From a virus (taxonomy: Duplodnaviria; Caudoviricetes), in IMG/VR virus record IMGVR_UViG_3300047469_000103, positions 236,332 to 300,331 of that record: DNA of 64,000 nucleotides; one strand, 5' to 3'. The translations under genes were made by a program, and so were the position numbers. Of the stretch, positions 1,689 through 64,000 are shown piece after piece. How positions within the stretch are numbered: the stretch's first letter is position 1; the number at the start of each line of letters is the position of its first letter. Below the pieces are notes generated by a model. It searched no databases. It was not told the DNA's origin and saw only the letters and a list, made by a program, of their open reading frames with translations.

Positions 1689-2368
1689 CGAAAATCTCCG
1701 ATTGAAGCTCGACGCCAAACGGCGAAAAGCTGTTTATCTAAGTTTGGATACATGGGAATTGTGTTGTCAAAATAAAGCTCGTATTTCAACACGAGGAAAT
1801 CGTTTTTCAACCGTGCAATTTTGACTCGCATGTCCGAGTTAAGAATCACGCTAACTTCCATTGACTCGCGCACCTTATCGGCACGTGGAGGAAAACGATC
1901 AGCGTAAACCGTTTTCTTTTCACCCGCGTGCATTTTCACACGCGACGAAAGTTTCAATTCCTCGGGCAATGTTTTGAATACTTTCAGTTCGACTAATCGA
2001 CGCAGAAGGTAATCAAGTTCGAATCGTTGCGGCTTCAGTTTCACTGTACCGCGAATGGTGAATCCGTTTACAACATTTACCAATTCATCGGCATTCCAAA
2101 CGAATTCAAACTGGTGCTGCACGGGCAAAAGGTGATACAAAAGAAACTTTGAATGCACCTGTTTGGCGAAGGCTTGATACTGCTTATTTACAGTAAAAAA
2201 GTCAGCCAACAATTTCTTGGTTTTTACTTTAACACCGGCTTGCTGCAAAAGAATGCGAAAACATTCACCCAATACAAGCGGTTCAAGTTTGCTTGTACGG
2301 GGCAGCTCTAAAAACGCCTCCCATGATCCTTGAAAATCGTCGCTAATATCGGATGGCATTTTCATCAT
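1685..2368 (-). CDS. hypothetical protein
   Basis: 227-aa ORF coupled by 4-nt overlaps on both sides. Confidence 0.75.
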   Translation of the reverse strand: MMKMPSDISDDFQGSWEAFLELPRTSKLEPLVLGECFRILLQQAGVKVKTKKLLADFFTVNKQYQAFAKQVHSKFLLYHLLPVQHQFEFVWNADELVNVVNGFTIRGTVKLKPQRFELDYLLRRLVELKVFKTLPEELKLSSRVKMHAGEKKTVYADRFPPRADKVRESMEVSVILNSDMRVKIARLKNDFLVLKYELYFDNTIPMYPNLDKQLFAVWRRASIGDFR

Positions 2369-2691
2369 TTCTTTTTCGCCAAGATCAAATGTTTAGCGGC
2401 TGCATGTCCCGGTCGCTTGGAATGGCAATCGGCACACAGAGTCCAAAGGTTACTCATGGTTGTTTGTCCGCCGCGTGCTGCCGGTCGAATATGATCGACT
2501 TGCAGATTTGTTTTGCACGGACATTTTCGGCACGTGTGATTATCACGAGCCAGAACTTTTTCACGTACTGCCATCCAATCCCAACGCTCGCCGTAAACTT
2601 GTACGGACGTGCGCCGAACCTTGGCAACAACAGCAGGTTTTTTCGTGACGCTTTTCGCCTTGAAAGGTTTAATGCGTTTTGGTGTGGTCAT
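2365..2691 (-). CDS. HNH endonuclease with Lys-rich N-terminus
   Basis: CRKC...LQVDHIRPAARGG...SNLWTLCADCHSKR is a classic Zn-binding HNH motif. Confidence 0.9.
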   Translation of the reverse strand: MTTPKRIKPFKAKSVTKKPAVVAKVRRTSVQVYGERWDWMAVREKVLARDNHTCRKCPCKTNLQVDHIRPAARGGQTTMSNLWTLCADCHSKRPGHAAAKHLILAKKK

Positions 2692-3497
2692 AGCAGAACC
2701 TTCCGCGCCCGGTCGAGTGCCAAGCCGTATTCTGACTGGAGGTTATCTGCGCATTCAGCCAAAGTATTTTTCAACTTCTTTTGAATCTCTAGGCGCATGT
2801 CCGAGTCTTTAACGAATTTCGAAACGGCACCGTCAATGTGGAAATACAGGTCGGTCAGCGACTGCGCCACAACCATTTGGTATGGCCGCATTACAATGCT
2901 TTCCAATTCAGCAATTTGTGCGCTGATATCCCGTGTGGCTCGCAGGTCGGCAATGACTTCGCGAATCTGCGAATAAATAACGTTTAGTGCGTAAACGTCT
3001 TTGTTGTAAATCCGATCTTCCATCTGCTCTTCGAAACGACCAGCCAGAGAAATCAGATTTTCGAATATGCGGCGTGACTCGGCATCGAATTCATCGACAA
3101 CCGGAGGCAATTCTACGAACACTTCGACAGCATCGAGAACTTGTTGTTTGCCCTTCGCCTTTTTCTTCAGTGCTGCACTTCCGGCGACTTTTGGGATTAC
3201 CGCCAGTTCGGTTTTCACCGACTTTTTCTTTTCTTTGATACGTTCGACCGTACCTTCGATTGTTACCGGGGTCTTGCGCTTTTTCTTTTTCAGTTCACTG
3301 CCTTTCTTGTACGTGTTGTCTTCAATCACAATGACTTCACGTTCAACTTTTTTCTTCTTTTTCTTCGTCTTCAGAATAGAAGAACCGCGACCGCCACCAT
3401 CATCGGCATCCTTGTTGCGGAATTTACCGCGTTCATCAATGTCGCCGCCCTGTCCACCACTTACGCGGTGAATGGAATCCCCACTATTCTTTTTCAT
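2688..3497 (-). CDS. hypothetical protein, Lys-rich N-half and helical C-half (possible terminase small subunit, weak)
   Basis: 269-aa ORF; poly-K tracts followed by amphipathic helices; adjacent to HNH. Confidence 0.6.
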   Translation of the reverse strand: MKKNSGDSIHRVSGGQGGDIDERGKFRNKDADDGGGRGSSILKTKKKKKKVEREVIVIEDNTYKKGSELKKKKRKTPVTIEGTVERIKEKKKSVKTELAVIPKVAGSAALKKKAKGKQQVLDAVEVFVELPPVVDEFDAESRRIFENLISLAGRFEEQMEDRIYNKDVYALNVIYSQIREVIADLRATRDISAQIAELESIVMRPYQMVVAQSLTDLYFHIDGAVSKFVKDSDMRLEIQKKLKNTLAECADNLQSEYGLALDRARKVLL

Positions 3498-3519
3498 ATT
3501 TCCCCCGGCTTAAATCGGC

Positions 3520-3542
3520 AAAAGGGGGCACGTGGCCCCCTT
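3520..3542 (-). terminator. intrinsic terminator
   Basis: Minus strand AAGGGGGCC-ACG-TGCCCCC-TTTT just after the stop at 3561. Confidence 0.75.
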
Positions 3543-3560
3543 CTGTTTATTGCGTGTTAT

Positions 3561-8879: not shown

Positions 8880-10316
8880 TTAACCGAACGAAGCTTTTTT
8901 GTTACCGGACTTCTTCGGAACAGCGCCACCTTTCGGTTTAGAGGCTGCTTTCGGAGCGGCCTTTGGAGCGGCCTTTGGAGCGGCTGCTTTTTTCACAGCG
9001 GCTTTAGTACCGGCTTTACCCGGTGCAGTTTTACCGGCTGGGGCTTTCAACGAAGTTTTGCTACCGTTGGAAGTTTTCTTGGCCGGTGCGGCTGCTTCGG
9101 TTTTTGGCTTGGCTGGACGGCCACGCTTTTTCGGAGCGGCTGCGGCTGGTGCGGCTTCGGTTTTTGGCTTGGCTGGACGGCCACGCTTTTTAGCCGGTGC
9201 TGCTGGTGCTGCGTCAGCTTTTGGTTTTGCAGGACGACCGCGTTTTTTGGCTGGAGCGGCTGGAGCAGCAGCTTCAGTTTTTGGTTTCGCTGGACGACCA
9301 CGTTTTTTCGCTACTGGAGCCGGTGCAGCAGCTTCAGTTTTTGGCTTGGCCGGACGACCGCGCTTTTTAGCGGCTGGAGCAGCAGCCGGGGCGGCAGCTT
9401 CAGTTTTTGGTTTTGCAGGACGACCGCGTTTTTTCGCAACTGGGGCCGGAGCGGCATCAGCTTTTGGTTTTGCAGGGCGACCGCGTTTTTTCGCTACTGG
9501 TGCAACTGGGGCAGCATCAGCTTTTGGCTTGGCTGGACGGCCACGCTTTTTGGCAGGTGCAGCTTCAGCGGCTGGGGCAGCAGCAGGGACTTTACGAGCT
9601 TTTTTCACAGCACCGCCGGTTTTGCCGAAGTGCTTAGTCGAAATAGCCGAAGTTTCTTTTGCAGCAGCTACTTTCGCAGCAGCGGCTTTCTTCGGATCAA
9701 TCGTTTTCAGACGCTTGCCTTTCTTGGAGATTGGCTTGGCGCTGAAATTGCCGATGAAGTCTTTCAGGCGGAAAACACCACGCTTGGCAGAAGCAGCTTT
9801 GATTTTGCCGAGAGTTTTCTGGTGAGTTTTCACCGCTTTCATACGCTCGCCAGCCAGAGTCTTACGCTCGGAAGCGTAACGTTGCTTTTCAGCAGCGCGC
9901 ATTTTCATACGAACGGCTGGGGCAACCTTGGCGGTACGGATTTTCATCAGTGCCTTTTTGTGGGCGCTGGAAACGGCTTGCGATTTTGCTTTCAGTTGGC
10001 CGCGAACGGATTTCTGAGCAGTAACAGCCTGACGTTTCTGTTCGGAAGCGTGCTTACCAGCGTGGCGCATTTTGCGGTTCTTTTTGTAGGCCGCAACAGC
10101 TTTTTTCGCTTCAGCTTCGGTAGCACCGTGACGCATGGCGCGAAGGAATACCACGTTTTCCAAGTGCGCCAGTTTTTCACCGTGCGACATGGTTTTGTAG
10201 CGGTTCTTCGACGCCTTGTTCAGCTTCGATTTGTTTTTGTTGCGGTATTGTTTGGCCTTTTTGGCGGCGATGCGCGCCTCGGGGCTTTTGTCCTTACGGA
10301 CGACTTTCGTGACCAT
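8880..10316 (-). CDS. histone H1/HMGA-like basic protein with 8 AT-hook repeats
   Basis: Eight copies of KKRGRPAKPK (AT-hook core RGRP) separated by Ala/Pro linkers; K/A/P-rich throughout. Confidence 0.85.
   Translation of the reverse strand: MVTKVVRKDKSPEARIAAKKAKQYRNKNKSKLNKASKNRYKTMSHGEKLAHLENVVFLRAMRHGATEAEAKKAVAAYKKNRKMRHAGKHASEQKRQAVTAQKSVRGQLKAKSQAVSSAHKKALMKIRTAKVAPAVRMKMRAAEKQRYASERKTLAGERMKAVKTHQKTLGKIKAASAKRGVFRLKDFIGNFSAKPISKKGKRLKTIDPKKAAAAKVAAAKETSAISTKHFGKTGGAVKKARKVPAAAPAAEAAPAKKRGRPAKPKADAAPVAPVAKKRGRPAKPKADAAPAPVAKKRGRPAKPKTEAAAPAAAPAAKKRGRPAKPKTEAAAPAPVAKKRGRPAKPKTEAAAPAAPAKKRGRPAKPKADAAPAAPAKKRGRPAKPKTEAAPAAAAPKKRGRPAKPKTEAAAPAKKTSNGSKTSLKAPAGKTAPGKAGTKAAVKKAAAPKAAPKAAPKAASKPKGGAVPKKSGNKKASFG
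9110..9555 (-). repeat. tandem imperfect ~55-65 nt repeats encoding the AT-hook units
   Basis: Recurring tttt(t)gg(c/t)tt(g/t)gc...gg(a/g)cg(g/a)cc(a/g)cg(c/t)tttt blocks. Confidence 0.85.
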
Positions 10317-14851: not shown

Positions 14852-15101
14852 TTGCGTGTTCCTTTTCATGGCGGGCAATCGCCTCTGTAATAAAATTCAG
14901 AGCGTAGCAATTTGCGCGCACGTAATTGTAACCAGCGTAACCGTCGGAGAATACAACCAGAGCCGGGTACGATTTCGGGTAGCCTTTGATATCTGGTTTG
15001 CTGTCGCTGTTCCAGAATTCTTTGGCCGCTTGTTTGAAGCCTGCTTGCGTCCGCACGATGTACAGGCACGGCGTAAGTTTTTCGCGATTATCTGTAATCA
15101 T
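14790..15101 (-). CDS. hypothetical protein
   Basis: 103-aa ORF with ATGA coupling to the upstream gene; 3' end overlaps the next gene. Confidence 0.6.
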   Translation of the reverse strand: MITDNREKLTPCLYIVRTQAGFKQAAKEFWNSDSKPDIKGYPKSYPALVVFSDGYAGYNYVRANCYALNFITEAIARHEKEHASGQSDSGRNEPTEAGSAGPV

Positions 15102-15850
15102 TTTGCCTTCGCCTTTTTCATACCTTTGACGACCACGCCTTTGTTGATCGCACGAATGTATCGCAATTCGTAAGCACTGATTTTCAACTGCTTTGCAATA
15201 TCGTCTTCCTCACCTTCCATCTGCAACGCTTCCCGGTACAGGATCGCTGTCGGACTGGTTAACAAATCACTCATTCGTTTGACTTGTTTATCAGTGAGCG
15301 GCACGGTCTGGCGTAGCTTATCCAATCGTTTACAGTATTGACTGAAACTCTCTTTCGAAGCCATCCACTTGCACACCAGTTCCTTGATTGGCTTCTGGTG
15401 CGTCTCGCTTGGCGTGAGATAAACAAACGTCATAAACTGCATCAGGAATGTGGCTTGTTGCTTCGCGTGATCCTTTGCCATTTTCACAATGTCGAAAGGC
15501 AGGCGCACGATTGGAATGTCAGGGCATTTATCCAGACGAACACACGGCGTCAATGCGAAGCCGTCGATGTGAAAGAATTCTTCTGCGCGGTAATCGGCAG
15601 GCGTGAAACTGAATTGCGAAAGCGCGATTGGATCGTCGCACACGTAGGACTGTGCTTTGCGCAGTTCCAGTCCTTCGCGGTTCCGCTGAAAAGAATGCAC
15701 ACTCATAAAAATGAAATGCGCACGCTTGTTTTTGCGGTCGATGATTTCGTTATCACCAACGATATAAACGTCAGAACGTTCGATACCTTCGCCGCGTAGC
15801 TTGAGCAATACTTCGTCAGGTGCCTTATGGGCGAACGCAAAAACTTTCAT
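15098..15850 (-). CDS. hypothetical protein
   Basis: 250-aa ORF. Confidence 0.75.
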   Translation of the reverse strand: MKVFAFAHKAPDEVLLKLRGEGIERSDVYIVGDNEIIDRKNKRAHFIFMSVHSFQRNREGLELRKAQSYVCDDPIALSQFSFTPADYRAEEFFHIDGFALTPCVRLDKCPDIPIVRLPFDIVKMAKDHAKQQATFLMQFMTFVYLTPSETHQKPIKELVCKWMASKESFSQYCKRLDKLRQTVPLTDKQVKRMSDLLTSPTAILYREALQMEGEEDDIAKQLKISAYELRYIRAINKGVVVKGMKKAKAK

Positions 15851-18808: not shown

Positions 18809-20964
18809 AATGCTTCCAGATACTTTCTGATATCGCGCAAGTTTGTTGCTGCGCGAGTTTGATGTTCAAAGGTCAGGCGCTGTTCCAGCATTTCCAGAGT
18901 CAGCAACCATTCCAAGCTTGGCGGATTTGCGAGGCATTCGCCGGGTTTACGGTCGCCGTAAAAACCGGACGCTGGTGGTTCATTTATAGATACGCCGGGA
19001 GACTTGCGGAAAACACGATCAAGATTTTCAACGTATTCGTCGATTTCTTTTTCGTCTTCCTGTTCCTGAATACGTTGGGCGTATTGCTCTGCGCTTTCAC
19101 CAGTCGGGCAAGGGCCGGGGCCAGTTGGGCCTTTCACGCCGATTGATTTTCCTTGAATGTCGAATACTTCGTGCGAGTCTTCTACTTCGCGCCCTTCTTC
19201 AGCAGCGACAGTTTTCAACGCAGAAACCAGACTTTCTTTTTCTTGCTCAGACCATTTATGCGGAGGCTGGCCGGTCGGAGCTTGCAGGTTTACATTCACT
19301 GCGAAACCATCAACGATTTTCACAGGAACGCCGCTGTCGATTTTTTCGCCTTCTTTCACAGGCACTTCAATAATCGCGGGACTCTTCATCATTTCAGCCG
19401 CGACTTGTTCTGCGATCCACGTTGCATCAGGCATGTAGGAAAGTTGAACTTGCCCACCAGCGCTAACACTTACGATTTTCTTACCGTAATGTGGATCGTT
19501 TTTATCTTCGATGTGTGTAGGCGCCGGACGCACTTCAACCGGCGCGTCAGGACTCATGAATTTCGAAACGAATTTATCCGAGGCTTCGCGCAATACTTCG
19601 TCGGCGCTTTCCATCAGGATTTCAGTCGGCGTTTGCACTTCTTCAACGACAGCAACTGCTTCAACAGGCTTACCGACTGGGGCAGGTTTGCGCTTTGGAA
19701 ACAGGAAGCCGGTCACTGCAACAAACTCAGCGATACCAGCGAGCAAAAGATTCGATTTTACTTCTTCGGTTTTCGCCGGATCGAGTTCGAAACGTTTCAT
19801 GAAAACCTGAAGACGCACGCCGCCTTCCAGATAATCCACAACGTCTGCAATTTCCAGCGTAGAGAATTCTTTGTAGACTTTTTTCACAGGTTGTTTCCCG
19901 ACCGGAGCTACTTTGATTTCGTTCGGTTTCAGGTCTGGCTGTTCAACGACTTTGATGCCGCCAAGATCAATCGTGCGAGGCACTGCGTTCTTCGCGGTTT
20001 CAGTTTCAATGAACTTTTCCAGCACTGCGCGAATTGCGATGTTCCGAACGTTACCGATATCAAATCCGCGATGGCTGAAATAATTCAGAACCATATCGTG
20101 CGACAGATGTGTGGTTTCGATGATCGTGTGCAAGTCGTATGGTGGCGGAATTGCACGGGAATATTCTTCCAGCACAGTCGCGACAGCTTCGGCATTCATG
20201 ATGCGGCGAACGCTGTGCAGATTGCGTGGGTCAAAATCCAGCGCCGGGTCAACATATTCGCCGTCTTGTTTAACGTTGAAATACCCATCCATCGACAGGT
20301 CGCCAAACACTTCGAGGAAATAGTTTTTCTCGACGATAAAAGCTTTGGAAATTTCCGCATGACATGTGTCGGCGGTGAACGCGTCTTTCATGTTCTGAAT
20401 CACGGCCCGCACTTCACCATCGGAAGTCAGGATGCGCCGGGTTTCAATCGGTGGTACGGTATGCACCACTTCAGATTCAGGCGTGTGCATCGAATACGTG
20501 TTGCCTTCTTTTGTCGCTTTTTTCTGGTCAATCAGATTGCGCAGAATCCACGTCAGTGCGCTACCCTTCTTGCCGAAGAACGCCCCCAATTCCATCGCCG
20601 TTTTCGGGCGACCGTTGGCGTCGATCAGCAATTGTAAAACGGATTCTTCAGACGGTTTATTCATGTCTGGTTTCAACGTCATGTCCTTCGGCGGAATGTC
20701 ATTGCGCAGCGTGTGAACAACCGGATTTTCCGAAGCAAACTCTTTCGAGATTGCCGCGTTTTCTTCCCGTGCGTGATCTTCGTTGATCGTGAACTTATTG
20801 TCGGCGTCCATGACCACGAGTTTCTGCTGCTTCAAAGTATTCGAAGCGTGAATCAGTTGGATATATTTCTCACCCATTTCTGCGGTGTAATCCGCCAGAG
20901 TTTTACCGGGGTGGCACTGAATATGAAGCAGCAGGGCTGCCTCTAATGTGGACAAGTTTTCCAT
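18805..20964 (-). CDS. large hypothetical protein with several winged-helix-like repeats
   Basis: 719 aa; segments such as EESVLQLLIDANGRPKTAMELGAFFGKKGSALTWILRNLIDQKKATKEGNTY fit wHTH spacing. Confidence 0.6.
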   Translation of the reverse strand: MENLSTLEAALLLHIQCHPGKTLADYTAEMGEKYIQLIHASNTLKQQKLVVMDADNKFTINEDHAREENAAISKEFASENPVVHTLRNDIPPKDMTLKPDMNKPSEESVLQLLIDANGRPKTAMELGAFFGKKGSALTWILRNLIDQKKATKEGNTYSMHTPESEVVHTVPPIETRRILTSDGEVRAVIQNMKDAFTADTCHAEISKAFIVEKNYFLEVFGDLSMDGYFNVKQDGEYVDPALDFDPRNLHSVRRIMNAEAVATVLEEYSRAIPPPYDLHTIIETTHLSHDMVLNYFSHRGFDIGNVRNIAIRAVLEKFIETETAKNAVPRTIDLGGIKVVEQPDLKPNEIKVAPVGKQPVKKVYKEFSTLEIADVVDYLEGGVRLQVFMKRFELDPAKTEEVKSNLLLAGIAEFVAVTGFLFPKRKPAPVGKPVEAVAVVEEVQTPTEILMESADEVLREASDKFVSKFMSPDAPVEVRPAPTHIEDKNDPHYGKKIVSVSAGGQVQLSYMPDATWIAEQVAAEMMKSPAIIEVPVKEGEKIDSGVPVKIVDGFAVNVNLQAPTGQPPHKWSEQEKESLVSALKTVAAEEGREVEDSHEVFDIQGKSIGVKGPTGPGPCPTGESAEQYAQRIQEQEDEKEIDEYVENLDRVFRKSPGVSINEPPASGFYGDRKPGECLANPPSLEWLLTLEMLEQRLTFEHQTRAATNLRDIRKYLEAL

Positions 20965-35394: not shown

Positions 35395-36086
35395 GAATCA
35401 AATTAAACCTTAACGAAACCAGCACGGCAGGCAGTGTGTACAGCACGCCGAGCATGGAAAGTGCAGAGCAACAGGAACCGTCAGACGAAGAACTGGCGAT
35501 TCGCGATACCGAAGAAAAAGAACGCGAAGCACAAGAAGCAGAAAAAGCGCGTAAAGACGCTGCGAAAAAAGCAGCAGAAGACGCGAAGAAAGTTCCTAAA
35601 ACTCCAAAGGAGAGTGGCGAAGATGCTAGCGGCGATACGGGCGATGGCGATGATGACGATTCTGGAGGTGAAGACGACGCCTCCGACGATTCCGATGATT
35701 CTGCTGATGACGAAACTTCGGACGACGAAAGTGCAGACGATGAAGAAGATTTAGGCGACGAAGAAGAGGACGAAGGCGACGAAGAGGAGGAAGAGGAAGA
35801 CGAAGAAGCAACCGCTTCCGCACTTCCATATCCTGACGCGCAAAAAGCTGTTCCAGATTTGCCAATCCTTCCGCTTAAAGAAGTACCGGCTGATCCTGAA
35901 GCAGAAGAGGAAAATCTCAACGCCGACGATAACACCGCATCGAATTTGAAAAATACCCCGGACGATCCAAACGTAAAAGATGGGGATAACAAAATCGAAG
36001 CGACAATCGAAGCCGTTGCCTCTGCATATTCGGAACGCCAAGCAATTCGCTCAGCGCTGCCGTACCCGGACGCGTGGAAAGCGTGA
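35391..36086 (+). CDS. highly acidic low-complexity protein
   Basis: D/E-rich core; ATAS motif; internal repeat SALPYPDA x2. Confidence 0.8.
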   Translation: MRIKLNLNETSTAGSVYSTPSMESAEQQEPSDEELAIRDTEEKEREAQEAEKARKDAAKKAAEDAKKVPKTPKESGEDASGDTGDGDDDDSGGEDDASDDSDDSADDETSDDESADDEEDLGDEEEDEGDEEEEEEDEEATASALPYPDAQKAVPDLPILPLKEVPADPEAEEENLNADDNTASNLKNTPDDPNVKDGDNKIEATIEAVASAYSERQAIRSALPYPDAWKA

Positions 36087-44351: not shown

Positions 44352-44927
44352 ATGACCGCACCAATCGTTAAAGTTTCGAAAGCTGTTGCCGCCGCCACTA
44401 AACTGCTGGCTACCCGCACCGACGCACTGACCGCTGCCAAAGCTGACCTGACCGCCGCCAACGCTACCGCCAAGCGTCAAAGCAAACTGGTTCTTTCCGC
44501 ACCGAAAGTTGTCGCTACCGTGCAGAAAAATGCGCAAGCTTCCATCGAAGGTTTCACCCAAGCCGTTGCCGTTCTGACCACCGAAGTTGCCGATGCAAAA
44601 GCTGCACTGGCGCTGGTAATCAAAACCGAACGTGACGCGGCCACCGCTGCTGCAAAAGCTGCAAAAGCTCTGCAAGCACAAAAAGATCGCGATGCAAAAA
44701 CTGCACAGCGTCTGGCTGACAAAGCTGCCAAAACTGCACCTGCTGTTGCTCCGGTTGCTGCGCCTGCTGTTAAGGCTGCACCGAAAGCAAAAGCTGCAAA
44801 AGTCGCTGCTGCCCCTGTTGCCACTGTGAAAGCTGCCCCGAAAGCAAAAGCTGTTAAAGCCGCTGCTGCCCCGGTCGCTGCCAAAGCTGCACCGAAAGCC
44901 AAAGTTGCCAAGGCTCCAAAAGCCTAA
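44352..44927 (+). CDS. Ala/Lys-rich H1/AlgP-like protein
   Basis: Helical N-half; C-terminal (K)AAPKAKAAK repeats. Confidence 0.75.
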   Translation: MTAPIVKVSKAVAAATKLLATRTDALTAAKADLTAANATAKRQSKLVLSAPKVVATVQKNAQASIEGFTQAVAVLTTEVADAKAALALVIKTERDAATAAAKAAKALQAQKDRDAKTAQRLADKAAKTAPAVAPVAAPAVKAAPKAKAAKVAAAPVATVKAAPKAKAVKAAAAPVAAKAAPKAKVAKAPKA

Positions 44928-46134: not shown

Positions 46135-47904
46135 ATGACTAACTACGTCGGCAAAACCATCAACGTAAACCACGGCGCTAAAAAAGGCGTCGTTAAAGAA
46201 ACCGTCGTTAAGCAATTGAAGAACGGCACCATTCGTACTGGCGACGGAACAGAATTCCACGCTGACGAAATCTACAACAAAGGCCGTGGCGTTTTTGTTG
46301 ACGTGAAAGGCGGCGCTACTAAAAAGCCTGCTGCCGTCGCTGCTGACAATTCCCGCAAAGCTCCAACTGCAAAACCTGCTGCTGCGCCAGCGCCTGCCGC
46401 TCGTGTTGCATCTGCTGTAACCGCCGAAGAACTGGAAGGCGCGAAAGTAAACGGTTCCCGTGTTGAACGCGTTCTGAAAAAGGCCGGGAAAGTAAAACTG
46501 GAAGACGGCACCACCGTTGAACTGTCGAGCATCGTTCGTAAAGGTCGCGGTTATGTTTCCGATTCGGCAGTAATGCCAGAAGAAACCAAACCAGCCGGTA
46601 AAACCGCTGGCGCAAAACCTTCTGCAAAAGGCGGCGCGGTTCCAAAAGTGAAAGCGGCAACTTTCGACAGCGCCACCTTTGGCCCTGCTGGCGAATACAC
46701 CACCAAAGACGTGCGCCATCAAATCGTCGATATCGACGGCGAAGAAAGCACCGTTGAAAAAGTATTCACTTCCGGTCGTTGCGTAACTGACGACGGTTCT
46801 GAATTCAACGTCTCCGAAGTGCGTACCCGTCTCGACGGCACCTTCTGCGTTTACTCGGAAGAGTACATTGTGGAATTGCAAGAATTGTGGGAAGCGACTC
46901 AAGCGCCGAAAGCCGCAGCGCCGAAAGCCACCGCTGAAATCACCACAAAAGAAGTGAAGAACAAAAATATCGCAGTGGGTGATGTTACTCACGTGATCGT
47001 AAAAACCTTTTCGAGCGGCAACGTTGAAACCGACCACGGTTTTAAATTCACCGTTAAAGATATCGCCCGCAAAGGTCGTGGCTATATCTACACCGGCGAA
47101 ATGCCAACCAAAAAAGGCGGCGCACTTCCTAAAGCTCGCCCTGCACCAGAACCGCAATCGAAAGTTCTGAGCGTTTCCGCTTTCGACGGCGACACTGCAA
47201 AAGACGTTCGCGATTTGTTGAACGTTGCAGTTCGTAACGCAATCGTCACTGCTTACGATATCGACGTAGCTGGCGTGTTCGTTGCGTATGACGAAAACAT
47301 GCTGACTTTCCAAGTTAGCTTCGCAGCAACCGACGCCGATTTGGACGTGGTTAAAGCTGCTGTAGAAAAACAGCGCCATGAAAATTTCGCTGATTCCGAA
47401 GCCCGCGATTTCGAGCAACACGAACTGACCGACGCGCCAGTCGTAGAGCAAGAAGAGGAAGAGGAAGAAGAGGAAGAGGAAGAAGAAGAGCGCGAAGAAG
47501 AGGAAGAGGAAGAAGAAGAGGAAGAGGAAGAGCCAGAATTCGCCGTGCTGCAAAACGACGACGATTTCGACGCAATGCCTACCAACGTTTCTTTCCCTGC
47601 TGACACTTCGAAAGACGTAGCCGGTGCCGATGGCCGTCTGAAACGTCTTTTCCCAACCAAAAGCCTCACCGGTTACGCTGAAGCGTGGTACGAATCGCAA
47701 GCGGCATTTGACGCGGTTGAATACGATATCGAACCGGGCAACACTTTGACTGTCGAAGGTCAGGAATATGTTTTGGTCGGCATTAAAGAACAGAAAATCG
47801 ACGGCGTACTGCAAGCCGCTCCTTTCCTCGTTCACGCAACCAAAATGCAATTCCGCCCTGACGTAACTTTCGACATGCTGAAAGAATGGGTTGCTGCGCA
47901 GTAA
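46135..47904 (+). CDS. multidomain protein: four beta-rich ~45-aa repeats, K/A/P linkers, poly-Glu tract
   Basis: Start MTNYVG after GGAGAG; repeats ending in (R/N)KGRG; E-run near 47450-47530. Confidence 0.8.
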   Translation: MTNYVGKTINVNHGAKKGVVKETVVKQLKNGTIRTGDGTEFHADEIYNKGRGVFVDVKGGATKKPAAVAADNSRKAPTAKPAAAPAPAARVASAVTAEELEGAKVNGSRVERVLKKAGKVKLEDGTTVELSSIVRKGRGYVSDSAVMPEETKPAGKTAGAKPSAKGGAVPKVKAATFDSATFGPAGEYTTKDVRHQIVDIDGEESTVEKVFTSGRCVTDDGSEFNVSEVRTRLDGTFCVYSEEYIVELQELWEATQAPKAAAPKATAEITTKEVKNKNIAVGDVTHVIVKTFSSGNVETDHGFKFTVKDIARKGRGYIYTGEMPTKKGGALPKARPAPEPQSKVLSVSAFDGDTAKDVRDLLNVAVRNAIVTAYDIDVAGVFVAYDENMLTFQVSFAATDADLDVVKAAVEKQRHENFADSEARDFEQHELTDAPVVEQEEEEEEEEEEEEEREEEEEEEEEEEEEPEFAVLQNDDDFDAMPTNVSFPADTSKDVAGADGRLKRLFPTKSLTGYAEAWYESQAAFDAVEYDIEPGNTLTVEGQEYVLVGIKEQKIDGVLQAAPFLVHATKMQFRPDVTFDMLKEWVAAQ

Positions 47905-47979: not shown

Positions 47980-49290
47980 ATGAACTTTTTCACTACTCTG
48001 CGTGCTGCTGCCGTTTCGCAATGCCAAGGCTTTTTCTATGGCCTGCTGTTGAACGCGCTGAAAACCGAACCGGAAGAAATCGTCGATTGGGTTTTGGTTG
48101 ACCCGGCAGAATACGATATCGACGAATCCGAAAATCATCCGCCGATTCTGATGAAACGCGTTGCGCTTCCGATGTTCGCAATTATCAACCCGGAAGAGCA
48201 GGAACAATACGCCACCAACGCCGCTACGGAAATCGAAGAAGCGTATGGCGTGAACATCGGTCTGTTTGTCGATGGCAGCGCCGGGGAAATCATCACGTAC
48301 ATTTCCAATTTCCCGGTTGACGTAAATCGCACTCGCGAATTGTTCAACGACGAAGAAGACGAAGAAGAAGGTTTGCCGTCTCACGCCGAAGTCGGTCAAT
48401 CGCTCGCGCTGCTGGAAGACGACGATATTCAATTCCTGAATTTCGTTCGTACCACGCAAGGCGAACAAATCTTCAACGATATTACTTTCGACGAAGACGA
48501 CGAAACCGCGCTGCGTGAATTCTTCATGGGCAACGAAAGCGCCGATGAACTGGAAATCACCAACGATTGCCTCGACGCGCTGCGTAACGAATACGACGCC
48601 GAAGAAGAGGAAGAGGAAGAAGAGGAAGAAGAGGAAGAAACCGACGACGCAGAAAATGCAGCCGGTAAAACTCCGCTGACTCTGGTTCCGCAAATTCCTG
48701 CGCCGGTTGTTGCTGACGATTTCGAACCGGAAGCGCTGGATGACTTCGAAGCAGAAGCGCCAGTAATTGCCGAAGGTGAAAAAACCGAAGCCGTTTCGGA
48801 TGTTGATTTGGCGTCTGATGATTTCGAAGCAGAACAACGCAACGAATCCGAACAGGCCGACGAAGAAGCCGAACAGGATGCCGCTATCGGCGCCCCGGAC
48901 AACGCGCACGAAGAATCGTTTATCGACGATCAAGGGCAAGCCGTACCTGCCGTTGCAACCGCCCCAGCGCCCGTACAAGCTGCGCCAGCCGAAACCGTGG
49001 CAGAAACCCCGGAACTTACCAAAGCGCGCTTTAACCGCACGCTGGAAGACTTCGCGGCCAAGCTGCCTACCGATACCATTTCCGAACTGGGCGACGGTGA
49101 AGTAACCGTGATGCTTTCCCGGTCGGTCGAAGGTGTGAACAAGGATTACGTTTTGCGCGTAAAAATTGAACACGAAAACTTCGCCGGTATCAAAATGATG
49201 GACGTGTTCTATCTGTTCGACGAAGCTGGTCTGCAACTGTTGCGCGCAACCAACGTCAACGCCGTACTCGACGCAATCGCCGCGCTGTAA
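47980..49290 (+). CDS. highly acidic hypothetical protein
   Basis: 436 aa, D/E-rich with poly-E tract; AGGAG RBS. Confidence 0.8.
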   Translation: MNFFTTLRAAAVSQCQGFFYGLLLNALKTEPEEIVDWVLVDPAEYDIDESENHPPILMKRVALPMFAIINPEEQEQYATNAATEIEEAYGVNIGLFVDGSAGEIITYISNFPVDVNRTRELFNDEEDEEEGLPSHAEVGQSLALLEDDDIQFLNFVRTTQGEQIFNDITFDEDDETALREFFMGNESADELEITNDCLDALRNEYDAEEEEEEEEEEEEETDDAENAAGKTPLTLVPQIPAPVVADDFEPEALDDFEAEAPVIAEGEKTEAVSDVDLASDDFEAEQRNESEQADEEAEQDAAIGAPDNAHEESFIDDQGQAVPAVATAPAPVQAAPAETVAETPELTKARFNRTLEDFAAKLPTDTISELGDGEVTVMLSRSVEGVNKDYVLRVKIEHENFAGIKMMDVFYLFDEAGLQLLRATNVNAVLDAIAAL

Positions 49291-52255: not shown

Positions 52256-52825
52256 ATGGCCAAGCCAGAAAAAAGCAGCAAAAAATCGTCCGCTCCACGT
52301 ACCAAAGTTTCGCGTCTGACTAAAGTCGAACGCAAGCTGACTGGCACCAGCGCCAAGACTCCTTTCAGCATGAAATCCGCACAGTTCACCGTGACCGGTT
52401 ACATGCAACAGCCTGTAGAAATTCCGGGCTACCTGATCGAACGTAGCGCCACGCATATTGTGTTCCGCCACAAGGCCACCAGCGCATCGAAGAAAATGGT
52501 TGTATCGGTTTTCCCGGTCGGCCAAGTTCTGGATCATTTGGGCGACGAGAAAGGCGGTTCCGTTACCGTTCTTCAGCGCAAAGCTTTCACCAGCGCAACC
52601 GGCACCCTGAAATTCAGCGGTAACGATATCATCGTCAAAAATGCTGACGGCGAAATCACCACCTTCTCGCAGAACGATATCGCTCAATACGAAGTGAAAG
52701 CGTTCGATCTGGAAGGCAGCCAAGCTTCGGGCCGTGGCGTTAAATCGTCTTCCGAAAAAGAAGGCAAGAAGTCTTCGAAAGTTACCAACATCAAAGACGG
52801 CGCGAAGAAAAAAGTAAAAAAGTAA
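52256..52825 (+). CDS. basic hypothetical protein with beta-rich core and K/S-rich tails
   Basis: 189-aa ORF with high-expression codons. Confidence 0.8.
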   Translation: MAKPEKSSKKSSAPRTKVSRLTKVERKLTGTSAKTPFSMKSAQFTVTGYMQQPVEIPGYLIERSATHIVFRHKATSASKKMVVSVFPVGQVLDHLGDEKGGSVTVLQRKAFTSATGTLKFSGNDIIVKNADGEITTFSQNDIAQYEVKAFDLEGSQASGRGVKSSSEKEGKKSSKVTNIKDGAKKKVKK

Positions 52826-52995: not shown

Positions 52996-53523
52996 ATGGC
53001 TGCTAAAAAATCCCCTGCTAAAAAATCCGCTCCTGCCAAGAAATCCAAGAAGCGCGAAATTCCACAAATCAGCGAAGCCGTGCTGAACCTGCTGAACCTC
53101 GACATTCTGTCGCAAGTTCTTCTCGCCTTCGACAAAGAAGGTTTCGAAACCATCGAAGACGTTCTCGGCGCCATTTCGCAACTGAGCGAAGAGGCTGAAG
53201 AAGAGGAAGAGGAAGAAGAGGAAGAAGAGGAAGAGGAAGAGGAAGAGGAAGAGGAAGAGGAAGAAGAGGAAGAAGAGGAAGAGGAAGAGGAAGAGGAAGA
53301 GGAAGAAGAGGAAGAAGAGGAAGAGGAAGAAGAGGAAGAGGAAGAGGAAGAAGAGGAAGAAGAGGAAGAGGAAGAAGAGGAAGAAGAGGAAGAGGAAGAA
53401 GAGGAAGAAGAGGAAGAAGAGGAAGAAGAGGAAGAGGAAGAGGAAGAGGAAGAGGAAGAGGAAGAGGAAGAGGAAGAGGAAGAGGAAGAAGAGGAAGAGG
53501 AAGAAGACGAAGACGACGAATAA
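52996..53523 (+). CDS. poly-glutamate protein (K-rich N-terminus, short helix, 103 consecutive Glu)
   Basis: GGAG RBS; E-run codons 53197-53505. Confidence 0.85.
   Translation: MAAKKSPAKKSAPAKKSKKREIPQISEAVLNLLNLDILSQVLLAFDKEGFETIEDVLGAISQLSEEAEEEEEEEEEEEEEEEEEEEEEEEEEEEEEEEEEEEEEEEEEEEEEEEEEEEEEEEEEEEEEEEEEEEEEEEEEEEEEEEEEEEEEEEEEEEEEEEEEEEEEEEDEDDE
53197..53505 (+). repeat. (GAA/GAG)n trinucleotide tract
   Basis: 309 nt of mixed GAA/GAG codons. Confidence 0.95.
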
Positions 53524-53660: not shown

Positions 53661-54281
53661 ATGGCTAAGAACGACGTAACCATCAACGGCAAAGCTGAAA
53701 TCACCCGTCTGCGTAAACAGCAGAAGTCGCTGGAAAAAGCTACCAAAGCTCAAGAAAATTCGCTGGAAGTTCTGCAATCGCAGACCGCCGAAGTGAACGC
53801 CCAAATCGAAGCCCTCGATTCGCAAATGAGCGGCGAGCCGGTGAAAGCTGCCAAAGGTAAAGGCAAAGCCAAGGCCGACGACAAGCCAGCCAAAGGCGGC
53901 AAGAAAGGCGCTGCCAAAGCTGAAGAAAAACCAGCCAAAGGCAAAGGCAAAAAAGCTTCGAAAGACGAAGACGATGCCCCGGCCAAAGGCAAAGGCAAGA
54001 AAGCTTCGAAAGAAGAAGTGAAGCCAGCCAAGAAAGCCAAGAAAGCCAAAGACGAAGACGACGCCCCAAAGGCCAAGAAATCGAAAAAGGCTGACAAAGA
54101 CGAAGCCCCGGCCAAGAAAAAGAAATCCAAGGACGTAGCTGAAGACGCTCCGAAGAAAAAGAAGAAGTCGAAAGACTCCGACGAAAAAAGCAGCAAGAAG
54201 TCCTCCAAGAAATCGGACAAGAAAGCTGACAAAACCAGCAGCAAGAAAGGCAAGAAAAAAGATTACGACTTCGAAGATTAA
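53661..54281 (+). CDS. Lys-rich histone-like protein with N-terminal coiled coil
   Basis: AKGKGKKASK and K/D blocks; ends KDYDFED. Confidence 0.8.
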   Translation: MAKNDVTINGKAEITRLRKQQKSLEKATKAQENSLEVLQSQTAEVNAQIEALDSQMSGEPVKAAKGKGKAKADDKPAKGGKKGAAKAEEKPAKGKGKKASKDEDDAPAKGKGKKASKEEVKPAKKAKKAKDEDDAPKAKKSKKADKDEAPAKKKKSKDVAEDAPKKKKKSKDSDEKSSKKSSKKSDKKADKTSSKKGKKKDYDFED

Positions 54282-55953: not shown

Positions 55954-56616
55954 ATGGCGGTCAAGACTAAGAAGATCAAAGTCCAATCTGTAAAAACAAA
56001 ACGCATTGTTACGAAGCCGAAAAAGACAGCGGCGAAACGTGACGCGGAAAAGATTACAAAGCGGAAACGCACAAGTACAGCGGCCCCGGTGCGAAGCGCT
56101 GGTGTGGTCAAGGTACGCGGTATCCCGTACAAGCTGCGCAAGTTCGAAAACCTTGGCGCACGTGCATTGCCCGAAACGTATTTCACTCGCGAAGGGCAAA
56201 GCCTCAAACAGTTGATCCGAAACACTCCGCGAATTTTCGTAAACAACGCGGTTGATGTTGAAGCACACAAATACAAACGGATGTTCACGAAGGCTGGAAA
56301 GCCTGCCGTCAAAGGCATCATGTGGACAAACGATCCTTTCCGTCCGCTGAAGGTTCGTCGCTATCACGAAACCTACATCGTCGGTCTGGATAAAGGCGGT
56401 GAAAATAAACCGCTTTATAAACACAAGCGCGTAATTGCACAGTGTACCTGTGAAGCGTACATCTACAACTTCGAATATGCGAACGCACGATGGGGCGCGG
56501 CGTATTTGATTTATTCCAATGGCGAGCCGCCAGCGTGGACTAACCCGGCGATGGTAACGGGCCTATGCAAACATTTGATTGCGCTCGCGAAAATCTGCAT
56601 TGAGGAAAACCTATGA
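55954..56616 (+). CDS. SWIM-type zinc-finger protein with Lys-rich N-terminus
   Basis: CTCE...LCKHL (CxC-Xn-CxH). Confidence 0.7.
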   Translation: MAVKTKKIKVQSVKTKRIVTKPKKTAAKRDAEKITKRKRTSTAAPVRSAGVVKVRGIPYKLRKFENLGARALPETYFTREGQSLKQLIRNTPRIFVNNAVDVEAHKYKRMFTKAGKPAVKGIMWTNDPFRPLKVRRYHETYIVGLDKGGENKPLYKHKRVIAQCTCEAYIYNFEYANARWGAAYLIYSNGEPPAWTNPAMVTGLCKHLIALAKICIEENL

Positions 56617-59477: not shown

Positions 59478-59480
59478 ACG

Positions 59481-62384: not shown

Positions 62385-62515
62385 TGAGTTGGTTTCCCTG
62401 CTTGGTTTTGCTCGTTGACTCCGACGAAACACTGATCGCAAAAACTGTAAACGATATACCGAATGGTGCAACCTTTCGCGTATTGAAAAAACGAATTAAC
62501 GAGGAAAATTCATGA
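62384..62515 (+). CDS. 43-aa microprotein, absent from ORF track
   Basis: MSWFPCLVLLVDSDETLIAKTVNDIPNGATFRVLKKRINEENS; TAATG overlap upstream and ATGA overlap downstream. Confidence 0.55.
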   Translation: MSWFPCLVLLVDSDETLIAKTVNDIPNGATFRVLKKRINEENS

Positions 62516-63741
62516 GTGCTTCTTTCAAGGGCTTTGGTTCGATCAAGACCAACAGCCGTAACGATTCCGTCCGTCTGGACGAAGTGATCGACATTATCAA
62601 ATGGGTTGATAAAAAGTGGGTTACGATTCGCGTCCTGCCTCTCGCCCCGCTGCAAGTGCGTCAAGCGTGGATCAAACTCTACGCCGGTAAAGAAAAGAAA
62701 GAAATTTCGATTCCGCGTTATGTCGTAAACTTCGATCCGTCGAATCCAGATACTCCGAAAAAAGGCGTGCGTTGCCCGTACTCGGAACTGGTAACTGACA
62801 AAGACGGCCCGGTACGCGTTTCCGACTTCTGGCTGTTCAACGTCATTGACCGCGACATGCAGGAAGAAGGCCCACCGCGTAAATCGTCGAAGCCTACAAA
62901 AGCTGAAGCGAAATCTGGTCACAAAGATATCACTTCCGAAACGTGGACTCCGGTTCGTGTTGCACGTTTCACCATGACTTCGATTCTGCGTTTGCAGGAA
63001 CTGTCGGAAGACAACCTCGTCAAAGACAAAAAGACCGGCAAAAAAGCGCAGTTCGACGCGTCCGATGCCCGTTACGGTTTCGACGTAAAAGTGAAGTTCA
63101 AGAAAGATGCACCGGGTACTGATAAGTACAGCATCGACAAGGCCGATGGCGCCGCTGCACTGACGAAAGAAGAACAAGGTTATTTGACTTGGAATCTTTC
63201 TGAAGAACTTCTGGACGCAACCGGTCGCATGACTGAAAAGCAAGCGCTGGAAGACGTTAAGCGTATGGAACTGGTCGGCGGTAATACGCTGGACGATGAC
63301 GACGATGACGACGACAAGCCGAAGAAAAAAGGCAAGGGTAAATCCCGTTCGCTCGACGACGATGACGACGAAGACGAAAAGCCGAAGAAGAAAAAGAAAA
63401 AGCCTTTCGACGACGATGACGACGAAGACGAAAAGCCAAAGAAAAAGAAAAAGAAATCTTCGGACGATGATGACGACGAAGATGAAAAGCCGAAAAAGAA
63501 GCTGAAGAAAAAGTCCAAGTCGGATGATGATGAAGACGAAAAGCCGAAGAAGAAGTTGAAGAAAAAGTCCAAGTCCGACGATGACGACGAAGACGAAAAG
63601 CCAAAGAAGAAAAAGAAATCTTCGAAAGACGACGACGAAAAGCCGAAGAAGAAAAAGGCCAAGGTCGAAGAAAAGAAAGGCGGTGCTAAAAAGAAGACCG
63701 CAAAAAAGGGTAAAAAGAAGAACGCATGGGATGATGAATAA
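62512..63741 (+). CDS. T4 gp32-like single-stranded DNA-binding protein with long D/K block tail
   Basis: TIRVLP...WIK...CPY...FNVIDR...GFDVKVK...Y pattern of gp32-type SSB; ends AWDDE; next to probable recA. Confidence 0.7.
   Translation: MSASFKGFGSIKTNSRNDSVRLDEVIDIIKWVDKKWVTIRVLPLAPLQVRQAWIKLYAGKEKKEISIPRYVVNFDPSNPDTPKKGVRCPYSELVTDKDGPVRVSDFWLFNVIDRDMQEEGPPRKSSKPTKAEAKSGHKDITSETWTPVRVARFTMTSILRLQELSEDNLVKDKKTGKKAQFDASDARYGFDVKVKFKKDAPGTDKYSIDKADGAAALTKEEQGYLTWNLSEELLDATGRMTEKQALEDVKRMELVGGNTLDDDDDDDDKPKKKGKGKSRSLDDDDDEDEKPKKKKKKPFDDDDDEDEKPKKKKKKSSDDDDDEDEKPKKKLKKKSKSDDDEDEKPKKKLKKKSKSDDDDEDEKPKKKKKSSKDDDEKPKKKKAKVEEKKGGAKKKTAKKGKKKNAWDDE
63296..63660 (+). repeat. seven imperfect repeats encoding D(3-8)(E)-KPKKK blocks
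   Basis: Recurring gacgatgacgacgaagacgaaaagccgaagaag units. Confidence 0.85.
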
Positions 63742-63755
63742 CCTGTGATTTCTTC

Positions 63756-63775
63756 GGGGCTATTTCGGTAGCCCC
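63756..63775 (+). other. UUCG hairpin (stabiliser or weak terminator)
   Basis: GGGGCTAT-TTCG-GTAGCCCC with no U-tract. Confidence 0.6.
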
Positions 63776-63793
63776 ACTTACCTTGGAGACTCT

Positions 63794-64000
63794 ATGCCAA
63801 AAGCGGTTGTAAAATCTAAAAAGCTCGATCTTTCCCCCAAGGCTGCGGCTGCGGAGAAAAAGAAGTTAGCGGCGGTAAAAGCGTCCGGCCCGGTGTTCGA
63901 TCCATATGCGAACCTCGAAGCAGAAATTGACGACATGGAGAAAAAGGTCGGACTGACCTCTATGTCTGTAAACGAAAAAGAAGATCGCCTAGACACAGGT
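63794..64000 (+). CDS. partial CDS, probable RecA/UvsX-like recombinase N-terminus
   Basis: GGAG RBS; K-rich start, then helix and ...RLDTG (position of the RecA STG motif); follows SSB; runs off the window. Confidence 0.45.
   Translation, partial: MPKAVVKSKKLDLSPKAAAAEKKKLAAVKASGPVFDPYANLEAEIDDMEKKVGLTSMSVNEKEDRLDTG

Follow-up and report, generated by a model that had tools for sequence, protein, structure and literature searches.

The tail of linker histone H1 pairs with the polyacidic proteins prothymosin-alpha and nucleoplasmin, and bacteria possess an H1-like protein, AlgP. In Streptomyces, the C-terminal lysine repeats of the actinobacterial topoisomerase I, TopA, stabilize the complex of this enzyme with DNA and confer processivity (PMC5714199). 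Molecular sleds, such as adenovirus pVIc and NLS-like peptides, are short basic peptides that interact non-specifically with DNA and carry cargo, including a viral protease, along it (PMC4740752, PMC4797294). The disordered linker of bacterial SSB, together with its acidic tip, serves as an interaction hub, as do the acidic C-terminal tails of T4 gp32 and T7 gp2.5 (PMC7145534, PMC10359462, PMC12424635), and the phage nucleus of chimalliviruses gathers replication proteins around phage DNA by means of a protein shell and selective import (PMC11077065).

The 64-kb stretch of DNA analyzed here (the window) comes from a giant Pseudomonas-type phage related to Pseudomonas phage Lu11; it corresponds to the replication and recombination module of this jumbo phage and shows synteny with Lu11 gp101-gp176. 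Lys-rich tails, defined by at least seven Lys in a 20-residue window no more than 45 residues from either protein end, are present on proteins of this module; they fall outside the catalytic domains, occur preferentially on DNA enzymes, and show conserved charge and composition. Our literature search found no paper on Lys tails across jumbo-phage DNA enzymes. The DNA-related proteins concerned, together with a peptidase and one borderline case, are as follows.

2365..2691, minus strand: HNH endonuclease, N-terminal basic stretch of ~30-50 residues; the Pfam HNH domain covers residues 54-92
15098..15850, minus strand: gp116-like protein, weak Lys-rich C-end (KGMKKAKAK) just under the criterion
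20964..22142, minus strand: DnaX-like clamp loader, starting MAKPEKKLKK, N-terminal Lys tail of ~36 residues
22223..23398, minus strand: zincin (HEXXH metallopeptidase; true start 23398), N-terminal tail of ~67 residues, 24 of them Lys
30241..30888, plus strand: RuvC-like Holliday-junction resolvase, N-terminal basic tail of ~33 residues, net +13; PHROG 18317 begins at residue 34
33122..34207, minus strand: DnaG-type primase, C-terminal Lys tail of ~33 residues with 15 Lys; the Pfam zinc ribbon and Toprim domains end at 295
34270..35394, plus strand: Cas4-like PD-(D/E)XK nuclease, C-terminal Lys tail of ~30 residues; Pfam PDDEXK_1 ends at 288
37451..39520, plus strand: type IIA topoisomerase B subunit, N-terminal Lys tail of ~28 residues; residues 31-35 align with GyrB 3-9
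39520..41169, plus strand: type IIA topoisomerase A subunit, N-extension of ~50 residues, the first ~30 Lys-rich
55954..56616, plus strand: SWIM-type zinc-finger protein, basic N-tail of ~50 residues, net +16
63794..64000, plus strand: start of a RecA/UvsX-like recombinase, Lys-rich N-end

Every Lys-rich end named in the original prediction, eight N-terminal and two C-terminal, is present in the sequence. Its view that these extensions are atypical of bacterial homologues also holds: neither bacterial nor T4 homologues have the tails, which add about 28-50 residues by comparison, and the boundaries of Pfam, PHROG and PDB alignments place the Lys-rich low-complexity segments outside the catalytic domains. 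In the clamp loader, Pfam DNA_pol3_delta2 starts at residue 56 and the PHROG profile at residue 38, and residue 42 aligns with residue 6 of E. coli gamma/tau. In topoisomerase A, residue 73 aligns with residue 22 of E. coli GyrA and residue 70 with residue 15 of T4 gp52. The type IIA identity of the two subunits is evident from the Pfam domains (HATPase_c, DNA_gyraseB and Toprim in B; DNA_topoisoIV in A) and the PDB matches (E 5e-65 and 3e-45 for B and A, respectively). The zincin, whose N-terminus reads MSDDLKKKKKKKK, contains the motif HEIGH and matches PHROG 17197 'peptidase' from residue 68 onward (E 1e-122); with respect to its subfamily, searches of Pfam and PDB gave no match, and the Atlas provided a weak lead to M34/M90-like peptidases. 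The SWIM protein lacks a Pfam match, but its CxC...CxH residues (C164, C166, C205, H207) are invariant in 30 homologues, and its top AlphaFold DB matches are SWIM-type (E 5e-4).

Given that genes in the window were called as the longest ORF with a codon-usage score, tail counts are approximate: 14 of the 77 window proteins qualify, while 300 shuffles, each retaining the composition of every protein, yielded 3.7 on average and 8 at most. The tails occur on 8 of 12 annotated DNA enzymes in the window and on 6 of the 65 other proteins (p=5e-5). Nor are they equally common genome-wide: in Lu11, 17/74 module genes are tagged versus 4/258 elsewhere (p=5e-9), so that 17 of all 21 tails fall inside the replication/recombination module. 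Start choice does not account for the tails, because tail-bearing starts either overlap the stop codon of the preceding gene or have a Shine-Dalgarno-like sequence, and C-terminal tails are immune to it. A Lu11-type promoter motif is found at 22171-22179, by the clamp loader gene.

The pooled tails are about 20-70 residues long, with ~34% Lys and a net charge of +7 to +16; aromatics are almost absent, Cys, His and Trp do not occur, and Lys is favored 3.9-fold as against 0.74-fold for Arg. Comparison of the pooled tails detected no common motif beyond Lys runs. Structure models of two proteins give pLDDT < 50 for both tails of the 52256 protein and, in the SWIM protein, for residues 1-18; together with the composition of the tails, this suggests that the enzyme tails are disordered.

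In Lu11 and HRDY3, the tails are located at the same ends, with Lys fractions within a few percent, although they are indel-rich, drift in length and are less conserved than the enzyme cores. Tags recur on the same families in PaBG, Alexandra, Motura, RSL1 and PhiXhv-15, but are scarce in Illi-2, an unrelated jumbo phage. Tail counts exceed the shuffle expectation in seven related phages, whereas the count in the outgroup Illi-2 is not clearly above that in shuffles (4 vs 1.8). The zincin tail is retained in Lu11, HRDY3 and PaBG, and the RecA/UvsX orthologues, including Lu11 gp177, are tagged in seven genomes. The basic HNH N-terminus (K7 and net +9 in the first 40 residues) is kept in Lu11 and HRDY3, but the outgroup HNH is also basic, so this tail is not clade-specific; the weak C-end of the gp116-like protein is kept in neither of these phages. 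In support of the system-wide charge tagging originally proposed, tail position, lysine fraction and net charge are conserved across the phage clade, and the tails occur alongside a conserved group of strongly basic and strongly acidic proteins.

These comparisons bear on the possibility that the tails are functionless, that is, products of repeat slippage, A-rich 5' initiation aids, or sites of incidental binding by a polyanion such as polyphosphate. Several tails and charged proteins are indeed encoded by tandem DNA repeats, many tails begin with MAK or MAA, and their lengths vary via indels. However, C-terminal tails cannot act as initiation ramps, particular families are strongly enriched, and orthologues only 30-60% identical still agree in which end is tagged, in Lys fraction and in net charge. 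Furthermore, the AAA codon share is 53% in tails versus 69% elsewhere, with AAG being commoner in tails, and runs of A or T of at least 9 are absent across the window. The enrichment of AAG and the avoidance of long A runs point to selection on the protein rather than on A-rich DNA. The starts shared between proteins are genuine, as originally reported (MAKPEK in the clamp loader and the 52256 protein; MAAKK in topoisomerase A and the poly-E protein described below), and their synonymous differences rule out recent copying. We consider functionless tails quite unlikely; at the level of sequence, the evidence indicates that the tails are maintained by selection.

We propose, with moderate confidence, that the Lys-rich ends are disordered and polycationic and tether the proteins to DNA or to some other polyanion. 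Under this proposal, the lineage would have appended tails to replication, recombination and topology enzymes and a few accessory proteins, giving them an affinity for a polyanion, in the first place the replicating phage DNA, that is salt-sensitive and does not depend on sequence. The tagged enzymes would then be concentrated on DNA, with longer residence and perhaps sliding. A close parallel is with Streptomyces TopA, which also carries a lineage-specific Lys-rich low-complexity extension outside the topoisomerase catalytic core, but the phage tails reside on type IIA subunits and about a dozen other proteins, at either end, and are much shorter. Basic N-extensions of topoisomerase A are present in 35 of 144 phage cluster representatives from many unrelated lineages, which fits an enzyme-intrinsic DNA-binding role. 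By contrast, the zincin, an enzyme with no obvious need for DNA, has the strongest tail, which is easier to reconcile with an address label than with an aid to catalysis. By analogy with the adenovirus protease, a precedent for sledding along DNA, the zincin tail could nevertheless be compatible with DNA tethering: both cases combine a basic peptide with protease cargo, although sleds have a length of 8-11 residues, frequently contain Arg and are in some cases attached post-translationally, whereas the phage tails comprise 20-70 residues, are Lys-dominated and gene-encoded. Conversely, SbcC, SbcD, the 5'-3' exonuclease and sigma, as well as the portal, are tagged in none of eight genomes; because SbcCD, the exonuclease and sigma work on DNA, such a role does not by itself entail a tail.

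In addition to the tagged enzymes, the window encodes several proteins of extreme charge.

8880..10316, minus strand: AT-hook array protein with 21% Lys and a net charge of +115; its eight KKRGRPAKPK repeats are encoded by a 60-nt tandem repeat at 9094-9551
35391..36086, plus strand: acidic D/E/S/G-rich protein, 34% D/E, net -56, with the motif ALPYPDA(Q/W)KA twice
44352..44927, plus strand: Ala/Lys-repeat protein, H1/AlgP-like, with AAPKAKA units and a 57-nt tandem repeat
46135..47904 (alternative start 46090), plus strand: gp157-like protein with an internal Glu-rich run
47980..49290, plus strand: acidic protein, net -88, 25% D/E, with Glu runs
52256..52825, plus strand: gene 1 of a conserved charge-matched trio, net +18, with a beta-rich core flanked by basic tails at both ends, starting MAKPEK
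52996..53523, plus strand: trio gene 2, poly-E protein with ~110 Glu, a Lys-rich N-tail of 20 residues and a small helical domain; 67% D/E, net -108
53661..54281, plus strand: trio gene 3, 31% Lys, with a Lys-rich tail and the acidic/aromatic C-tip DYDFED, net +27
62512..63741, plus strand: phage SSB (PHROG 15004) whose C-terminal tail of ~140 residues is built of D/K blocks and ends in AWDDE

The strongly acidic proteins at 35391, 46135, 47980 and 52996 were all recovered in the sequence. The basic nature of the proteins at 8880, 44352 and 53661 was likewise borne out, but their description as histone-like was not supported: one is an AT-hook array, and no histone fold was identified in any of them. 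In the first of these, a pattern search found eight KKRGRPAKP units with an RGRP core and basic flanks, resembling the repeated K/R-flanked RGRP cores of the HMGA AT-hook (PF02178); it differs from HMGA in being phage-encoded, in having many more repeats and a basic helical N-region, in lacking an acidic tail, and in a Pfam AT_hook score just under the cut-off (17.2 bits against 17.4, E 0.004). Its counterpart in Lu11, gp111, has six PGRPKKT units. The Ala/Lys protein at 44352 has no Pfam or PHROG family. The Lu11 orthologue of the 35391 protein, gp142, has a terminal Lys tail, and the label 'polyphosphate kinase' given in Lu11 to the orthologue of the 47980 protein is unsupported, as no Pfam family is detected. 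For trio gene 1, AlphaFold2 models the core at residues 44-149, and none of 35 homologues has a Pfam family; the N-terminal third of the trio gene 3 product looks, by eye, like a coiled coil.

Extended to these proteins, the tethering proposal would have the AT-hook array, the H1-like Ala/Lys protein and the Lys-rich product of trio gene 3 coating the same phage DNA, with the very acidic proteins probably buffering or chaperoning the polycations. As in the H1 and AlgP systems, Ala/Lys/Pro polycations are encoded beside polyanions of matching charge size, but the phage proteins have no histone or globular H1 fold and the host is bacterial. The net charges of the trio are nearly constant in five phages (+14 to +18 for gene 1, -94 to -108 for gene 2 and about +26 for gene 3), and a separate promoter motif for the poly-E gene lies at 52905-52913; the charge-matched trio, with its poly-E member, suggests more organization than independent tethers need.

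Such organization could reflect the shell-less electrostatic replication compartment of the original hypothesis, a complex coacervate into which the tails, as client tags, would partition proteins, with phage DNA, poly-E, the 35391 and 47980 proteins, the SSB tail and the basic coat proteins as predicted scaffolds. Oppositely charged multivalent scaffolds are indeed co-encoded (poly-E at -108, the AT-hook protein at +115, and the blocky SSB tail), the promoter motif of the poly-E gene and the constant charges of the trio are in line with this scheme, tail net charges are alike across unrelated enzymes, and the peptidase and several proteins without functional annotation are tagged as well. The SSB tail is, as originally noted, a blocky D/K polyampholyte (FCR 0.75, NCPR +0.09, kappa 0.54), a pattern known to favor self-association. 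Nevertheless, acid-rich proteins are as frequent in the untagged Illi-2 (5 proteins), the tails share only Lys runs, the persistence of the same tagged and untagged families over deep divergence suggests enzyme-specific roles, and plain DNA binding predicts the same co-localization. We regard a coacervate as possible but rather unlikely. It would resemble the chimallivirus nucleus in gathering replication proteins of a jumbo phage about DNA, but any compartment in the Lu11-like clade, which we take to lie outside the chimalliviruses, would be electrostatic and is hypothetical.

The SSB tail, with a 54-nt tandem repeat and six to seven D/E blocks, could also be read differently: the Lys tails might bind acidic D/E blocks or tips of SSB, RecA and the Lys-rich trio protein, assembling the replisome by fuzzy recruitment with no main role for bulk DNA. 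All three proteins bear conserved acidic or acidic/aromatic tips (AWDDE, GDGDDEE and DYDFED, respectively; DDDIPF in Motura), and the SSB and clamp loader of Alexandra end alike, DDKPAKKKKKKK. The long disordered C-tail with such a tip is reminiscent of bacterial SSB, gp32 and gp2.5, but the phage tail is a polyampholyte of repeated D/E and Lys blocks and far more charged. Compared with T7 gp2.5 and T4 gp32, the polarity of recruitment would be reversed; textbook receptors of SSB tips are folded pockets, not Lys tails, and the tails contain no conserved docking motif. On these protein sequences, fuzzy recruitment seems to us improbable as the main role of the tails, and tethering to a polyanion remains the preferred reading.

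Finally, the tails might load proteins into the virion, by co-packaging with DNA or by targeting the head. Other viruses are known to contain polycationic internal proteins, and in principle capsid DNA could be condensed by the AT-hook and Lys-rich proteins. However, the tags are on replication enzymes and at either protein end, whereas the portal, head-region and recognized structural proteins are untagged, which makes virion loading highly improbable. A T4-type capsid targeting sequence, which is a short N-terminal leader common to head-internal proteins and removed by the prohead protease, was considered and rejected, given that the tails have no leader motif. Elsewhere in Lu11 and HRDY3, other proteins start with MIISLAAA and MNIALAAS.

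The window belongs to an undescribed jumbo phage of the Lu11 type and represents its module for replication and recombination, because our gene calls line up one-to-one with gp101–gp176 of Pseudomonas phage Lu11; in the topoisomerase region the nucleotide identity between the two is about 74%. A few head genes occupy the left end of the window, and the genes lie on the minus strand as far as approximately 30.1 kb, where they switch to the plus strand. Lu11 and other public relatives were used as proxies for the window's phage, with the genome-wide test run on Lu11. The window genes were called as longest open reading frames, so that some N-termini are too long; the start of the HEXXH zincin peptidase (minus strand) was set at 23398. 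The core of the middle/late promoter annotated in Lu11, ACTGTAAAT, occurs 7 times in the window against 0.37 expected, including sites upstream of the genes for the clamp loader, a basic protein with a beta-rich core (52256, named, like other handles, by start coordinate) and a poly-E protein (52996).

Sites of the promoter core ACTGTAAAT in the window
2186, 11662, 22171; minus strand; motif match
36144, 51569, 51923, 52905; plus strand; motif match

Between 11897 and 14229 an endolysin-like gene looks split or rearranged: residues 1–116 of the putative Lu11 endolysin gp114 resemble the ORF at 13870–14229 (minus strand) and residues 163–200 that at 11897–12298 (minus strand), with about 1.6 kb of small genes between the two. 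Four adjacent small genes at 12951–14878 (minus strand) share a similar basic C-terminal module, (F/Y)RSxRxA(K/R)V/M.

The original prediction listed Lys-rich ends on a set of DNA enzymes, and in the window sequence each named protein does have the end described. With a tail defined as at least 7 Lys in a 20-residue window no more than 45 residues from an end, 14 of the 77 window proteins are tagged, whereas 300 trials in which each protein's own residues were shuffled gave 3.7 on average and never more than 8. The tagged set comprises 8 of the 12 proteins annotated in DNA or RNA metabolism vs. 6 of the 65 others (p=5e-5). Nor are tails equally common throughout the genome, an outcome that would have spoken against the prediction: in Lu11 they occur in 17 of 74 genes of the 74–143 kb module vs. 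4 of 258 elsewhere (p=5e-9), and among those tagged are RecA (gp177) and a helicase of the DnaB type (gp186). A gp104-like protein encoded beside the head genes (2688–3497, minus strand), with internal Lys runs (KKKKKK, KKKKRK) in the N-terminal 130 residues and a C-terminal half that is helical, may be scaffold-like and was left out of the terminal-tail count.

Pfam and PHROGs confirm the assignments of the HNH protein, the DnaX-like clamp loader, the resolvase, the DnaG-type primase, the Cas4-like PD-(D/E)XK nuclease, both type IIA topoisomerase subunits, SSB and the HEXXH peptidase, although the subfamily of the latter had no Pfam or PDB match and only a weak Atlas lead. In the SWIM protein the CxC...CxH signature is invariant across 30 homologues, and SWIM-type proteins are the top AlphaFold DB matches, with no match in the PDB. 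Comparison with bacterial and T4 homologues bore out the claim that the extensions were added outside the conserved domains: residues 31–35 of topoisomerase B align to GyrB residues 3–9, residues 73 and 70 of topoisomerase A to Escherichia coli GyrA residue 22 and T4 gp52 residue 15, respectively, and clamp-loader residue 42 to residue 6 of E. coli gamma/tau, and the PHROG profiles begin at residue 34 of the resolvase and residue 68 of the peptidase. The starts of the tail genes are credible because they are accompanied by Shine-Dalgarno-like purine runs or by an ATGA overlap with the upstream stop codon; together with the conserved frames, these features rule out a start-codon artefact.

Lys makes up 34% of the pooled enzyme tails, a 3.9-fold enrichment over the proteome, and the remainder is mostly Ala, Ser, Val, Pro and Thr, with Arg depleted (0.74-fold), almost no aromatics and no Cys, His or Trp; this composition suggests that the tails are disordered. 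Net charge per tail ranges from +7 to +16, the exception being one 15-residue segment of the 52256 protein (+4), and the tails share no motif apart from the Lys runs. Lysine is encoded by AAA in 53% of tail codons vs. 69% elsewhere, and every A or T run in the window is shorter than 9; the shift to AAG and the lack of longer runs argue for selection that would act on the protein sequence of the tails, and against slippery poly-A. An artefact of A-rich DNA or of a translation ramp is ruled out by the AAG enrichment, the existence of C-terminal tails and the absence of homopolymers of at least 9.

In the Lu11 and HRDY3 orthologues every tail is kept at the same end with a near-equal Lys fraction (e.g., 0.37 vs. 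0.32; 0.40 vs. 0.41), even as the tails are indel-rich and, in most cases, more divergent than the cores. The counts below come from our own gene calls in eight complete genomes, a small and phylogenetically non-independent sample; the Lys content of the proteome is 6.0–6.7% in seven of the eight and lower, 5.1%, in RSL1.

Lys-rich tails in eight complete genomes
Lu11: observed 21; shuffle mean 6.0
HRDY3: observed 27; shuffle mean 7.0
PaBG: observed 14; shuffle mean 6.0
Alexandra: observed 16; shuffle mean 5.6
Motura: observed 23; shuffle mean 5.7
RSL1: observed 8; shuffle mean 1.3
PhiXhv-15: observed 13; shuffle mean 2.6
Illi-2 (outgroup): observed 4; shuffle mean 1.8

Across these genomes the same families are tagged repeatedly. 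The C-terminus of SSB and the N-termini of RecA and topoisomerase A are tagged nearly everywhere. Five further families (clamp loader, primase, SWIM protein, peptidase and 52256) have the tail in only some of the genomes, but all five have it in the window, Lu11 and HRDY3. SbcC, SbcD, the 5'-3' exonuclease, sigma and portal have a tail in none of the genomes compared. In the wider topoisomerase A family, an N-terminal extension with a net charge of at least +5 is present in 35 of 144 full-length cluster representatives, including 12 of the 22 nearest relatives. Among the topoisomerase A homologues, many have a length of 800–1200 residues and a match that is broken in two; the 300–600 extra residues, near query position 120–170, are probably inteins or homing-endonuclease insertions. 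In HRDY3 (PQ015379), the enzyme is annotated at 4814–6405 as two consecutive CDSs of 315 and 216 aa, which may reflect a frameshift or a real split, and the C-terminus of topoisomerase B is divergent. The clamp loader and SSB of Erwinia phage Alexandra (NC_047995; 176490–177770 and 199585–200859) have the identical ending DDKPAKKKKKKK, which suggests exchange of a tail module between genes, or convergence.

Conservation of the end, the charge and the codon pattern makes it unlikely that the tails are without function in origin. Packaging of the tagged proteins into the virion is likewise unlikely because no recognised structural protein is tagged; moreover, other proteins show a different N-terminal leader. 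The simplest mechanism that fits all the observations would be that the tails are polycationic, disordered tethers to a polyanion, chiefly DNA. There is experimental precedent for Lys-rich tethering in the lysine repeats of Streptomyces TopA (PMC5714199) and in the basic "molecular sled" peptides, one of which moves a viral protease along DNA (PMC4740752, PMC4797294). Judged from sequence, the novelty relative to these known Lys tethers would be the lineage-wide use of Lys-rich DNA-tethering tails. Full-text literature searches returned no description of such tails, of the AT-hook protein or of the charged gene trio (see below) in jumbo phages, and searches on phage condensates likewise returned none.

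The genes 52256, 52996 and 53661 (the last encoding a Lys-rich protein) form a trio that is syntenic in five phages.

The charged trio
Window, 52256–54281, plus strand; synteny
Lu11, gp163–165; synteny
HRDY3, 140133–142086; synteny
PaBG, 88996–90945; synteny
Alexandra, 254536–256817; synteny

Over the five phages the net charges are near-constant (+14 to +18, -94 to -108 and +23 to +30, respectively); lengths and residue choice vary, some phages using poly-E and others an E/D alternation. At the C-terminus of the third protein is an acidic/aromatic tip (DYDFED and variants) similar to the tips of SSB (AWDDE in the window, DDDIPF in Motura), and the SSB tail is a blocky polyampholyte (FCR 0.75, NCPR +0.09, kappa 0.54). 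For the 52256 protein, structure prediction yields a confident beta-rich core with low-confidence tails; Foldseek found no match for the core in the PDB or AlphaFold DB, and an Hfq/Sm-like fold, the best VIA-align match, was rejected at a noise-level Z of 5.4. A protein search with the N-terminal domain of the poly-E protein gave no homologues, and IMG/VR only one near-identical contig.

The 8880–10316 protein (minus strand; net charge +115) contains eight KKRGRPAKPK units, which are AT-hooks scoring just below the Pfam cut-off and encoded by a 60-nt tandem repeat at 9094–9551; Lu11 gp111 has six PGRPKKT units. A possible role for such an array would be competition with H-NS/MvaT-type silencers over AT-rich minor grooves. 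The protein at 44352 has Ala/Lys repeats and is assigned a family by neither Pfam nor PHROG. Neither the trio nor the AT-hook array falls into a described family; both may be phage "chromatin" proteins.

The question at stake is how large phages without a protein nucleus manage to hold dozens of their replication and repair proteins on phage DNA in a crowded host cell. The tail-bearing clade presumably lacks a nucleus shell. In an extended form of the original prediction, replication would proceed in a shell-less electrostatic compartment for which the tails are a sufficient and interchangeable address: a DNA-based coacervate would arise from the trio, the AT-hook and H1-like coat proteins and the SSB tail with its charge blocks, and enzymes and protease would be brought in by a short Lys tail. 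The data are compatible with such a code, which the tagged peptidase, the constant charges of the trio and the blocky SSB tail make attractive; if true, it would give bacterial viruses a counterpart to charge-coded nuclear or nucleolar targeting. We nevertheless consider it unlikely: plain DNA binding would account for the same results, and the outgroup Illi-2, in which the tails are not enriched, has just as many acid-rich proteins, five, which speaks against a specific link between polyacidic proteins and the tail-bearing clade. The tails might also find use as portable tags for attaching proteins to DNA in bacteria. Roughly two thirds of the lineage's DNA enzymes have a tail, and those without one are the same in every case; this selective and consistent tagging makes the retention question directly testable in the culturable phages Lu11, HRDY3 and PaBG.

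Among the acidic proteins, the Lu11 label "polyphosphate kinase" for the orthologue of 47980 has no Pfam support. The 35391–36086 protein (plus strand) contains one internal and one C-terminal copy of ALPYPDA(Q/W)KA; Lu11 gp142 instead combines a related motif, SLPYPN, with a Lys tail.
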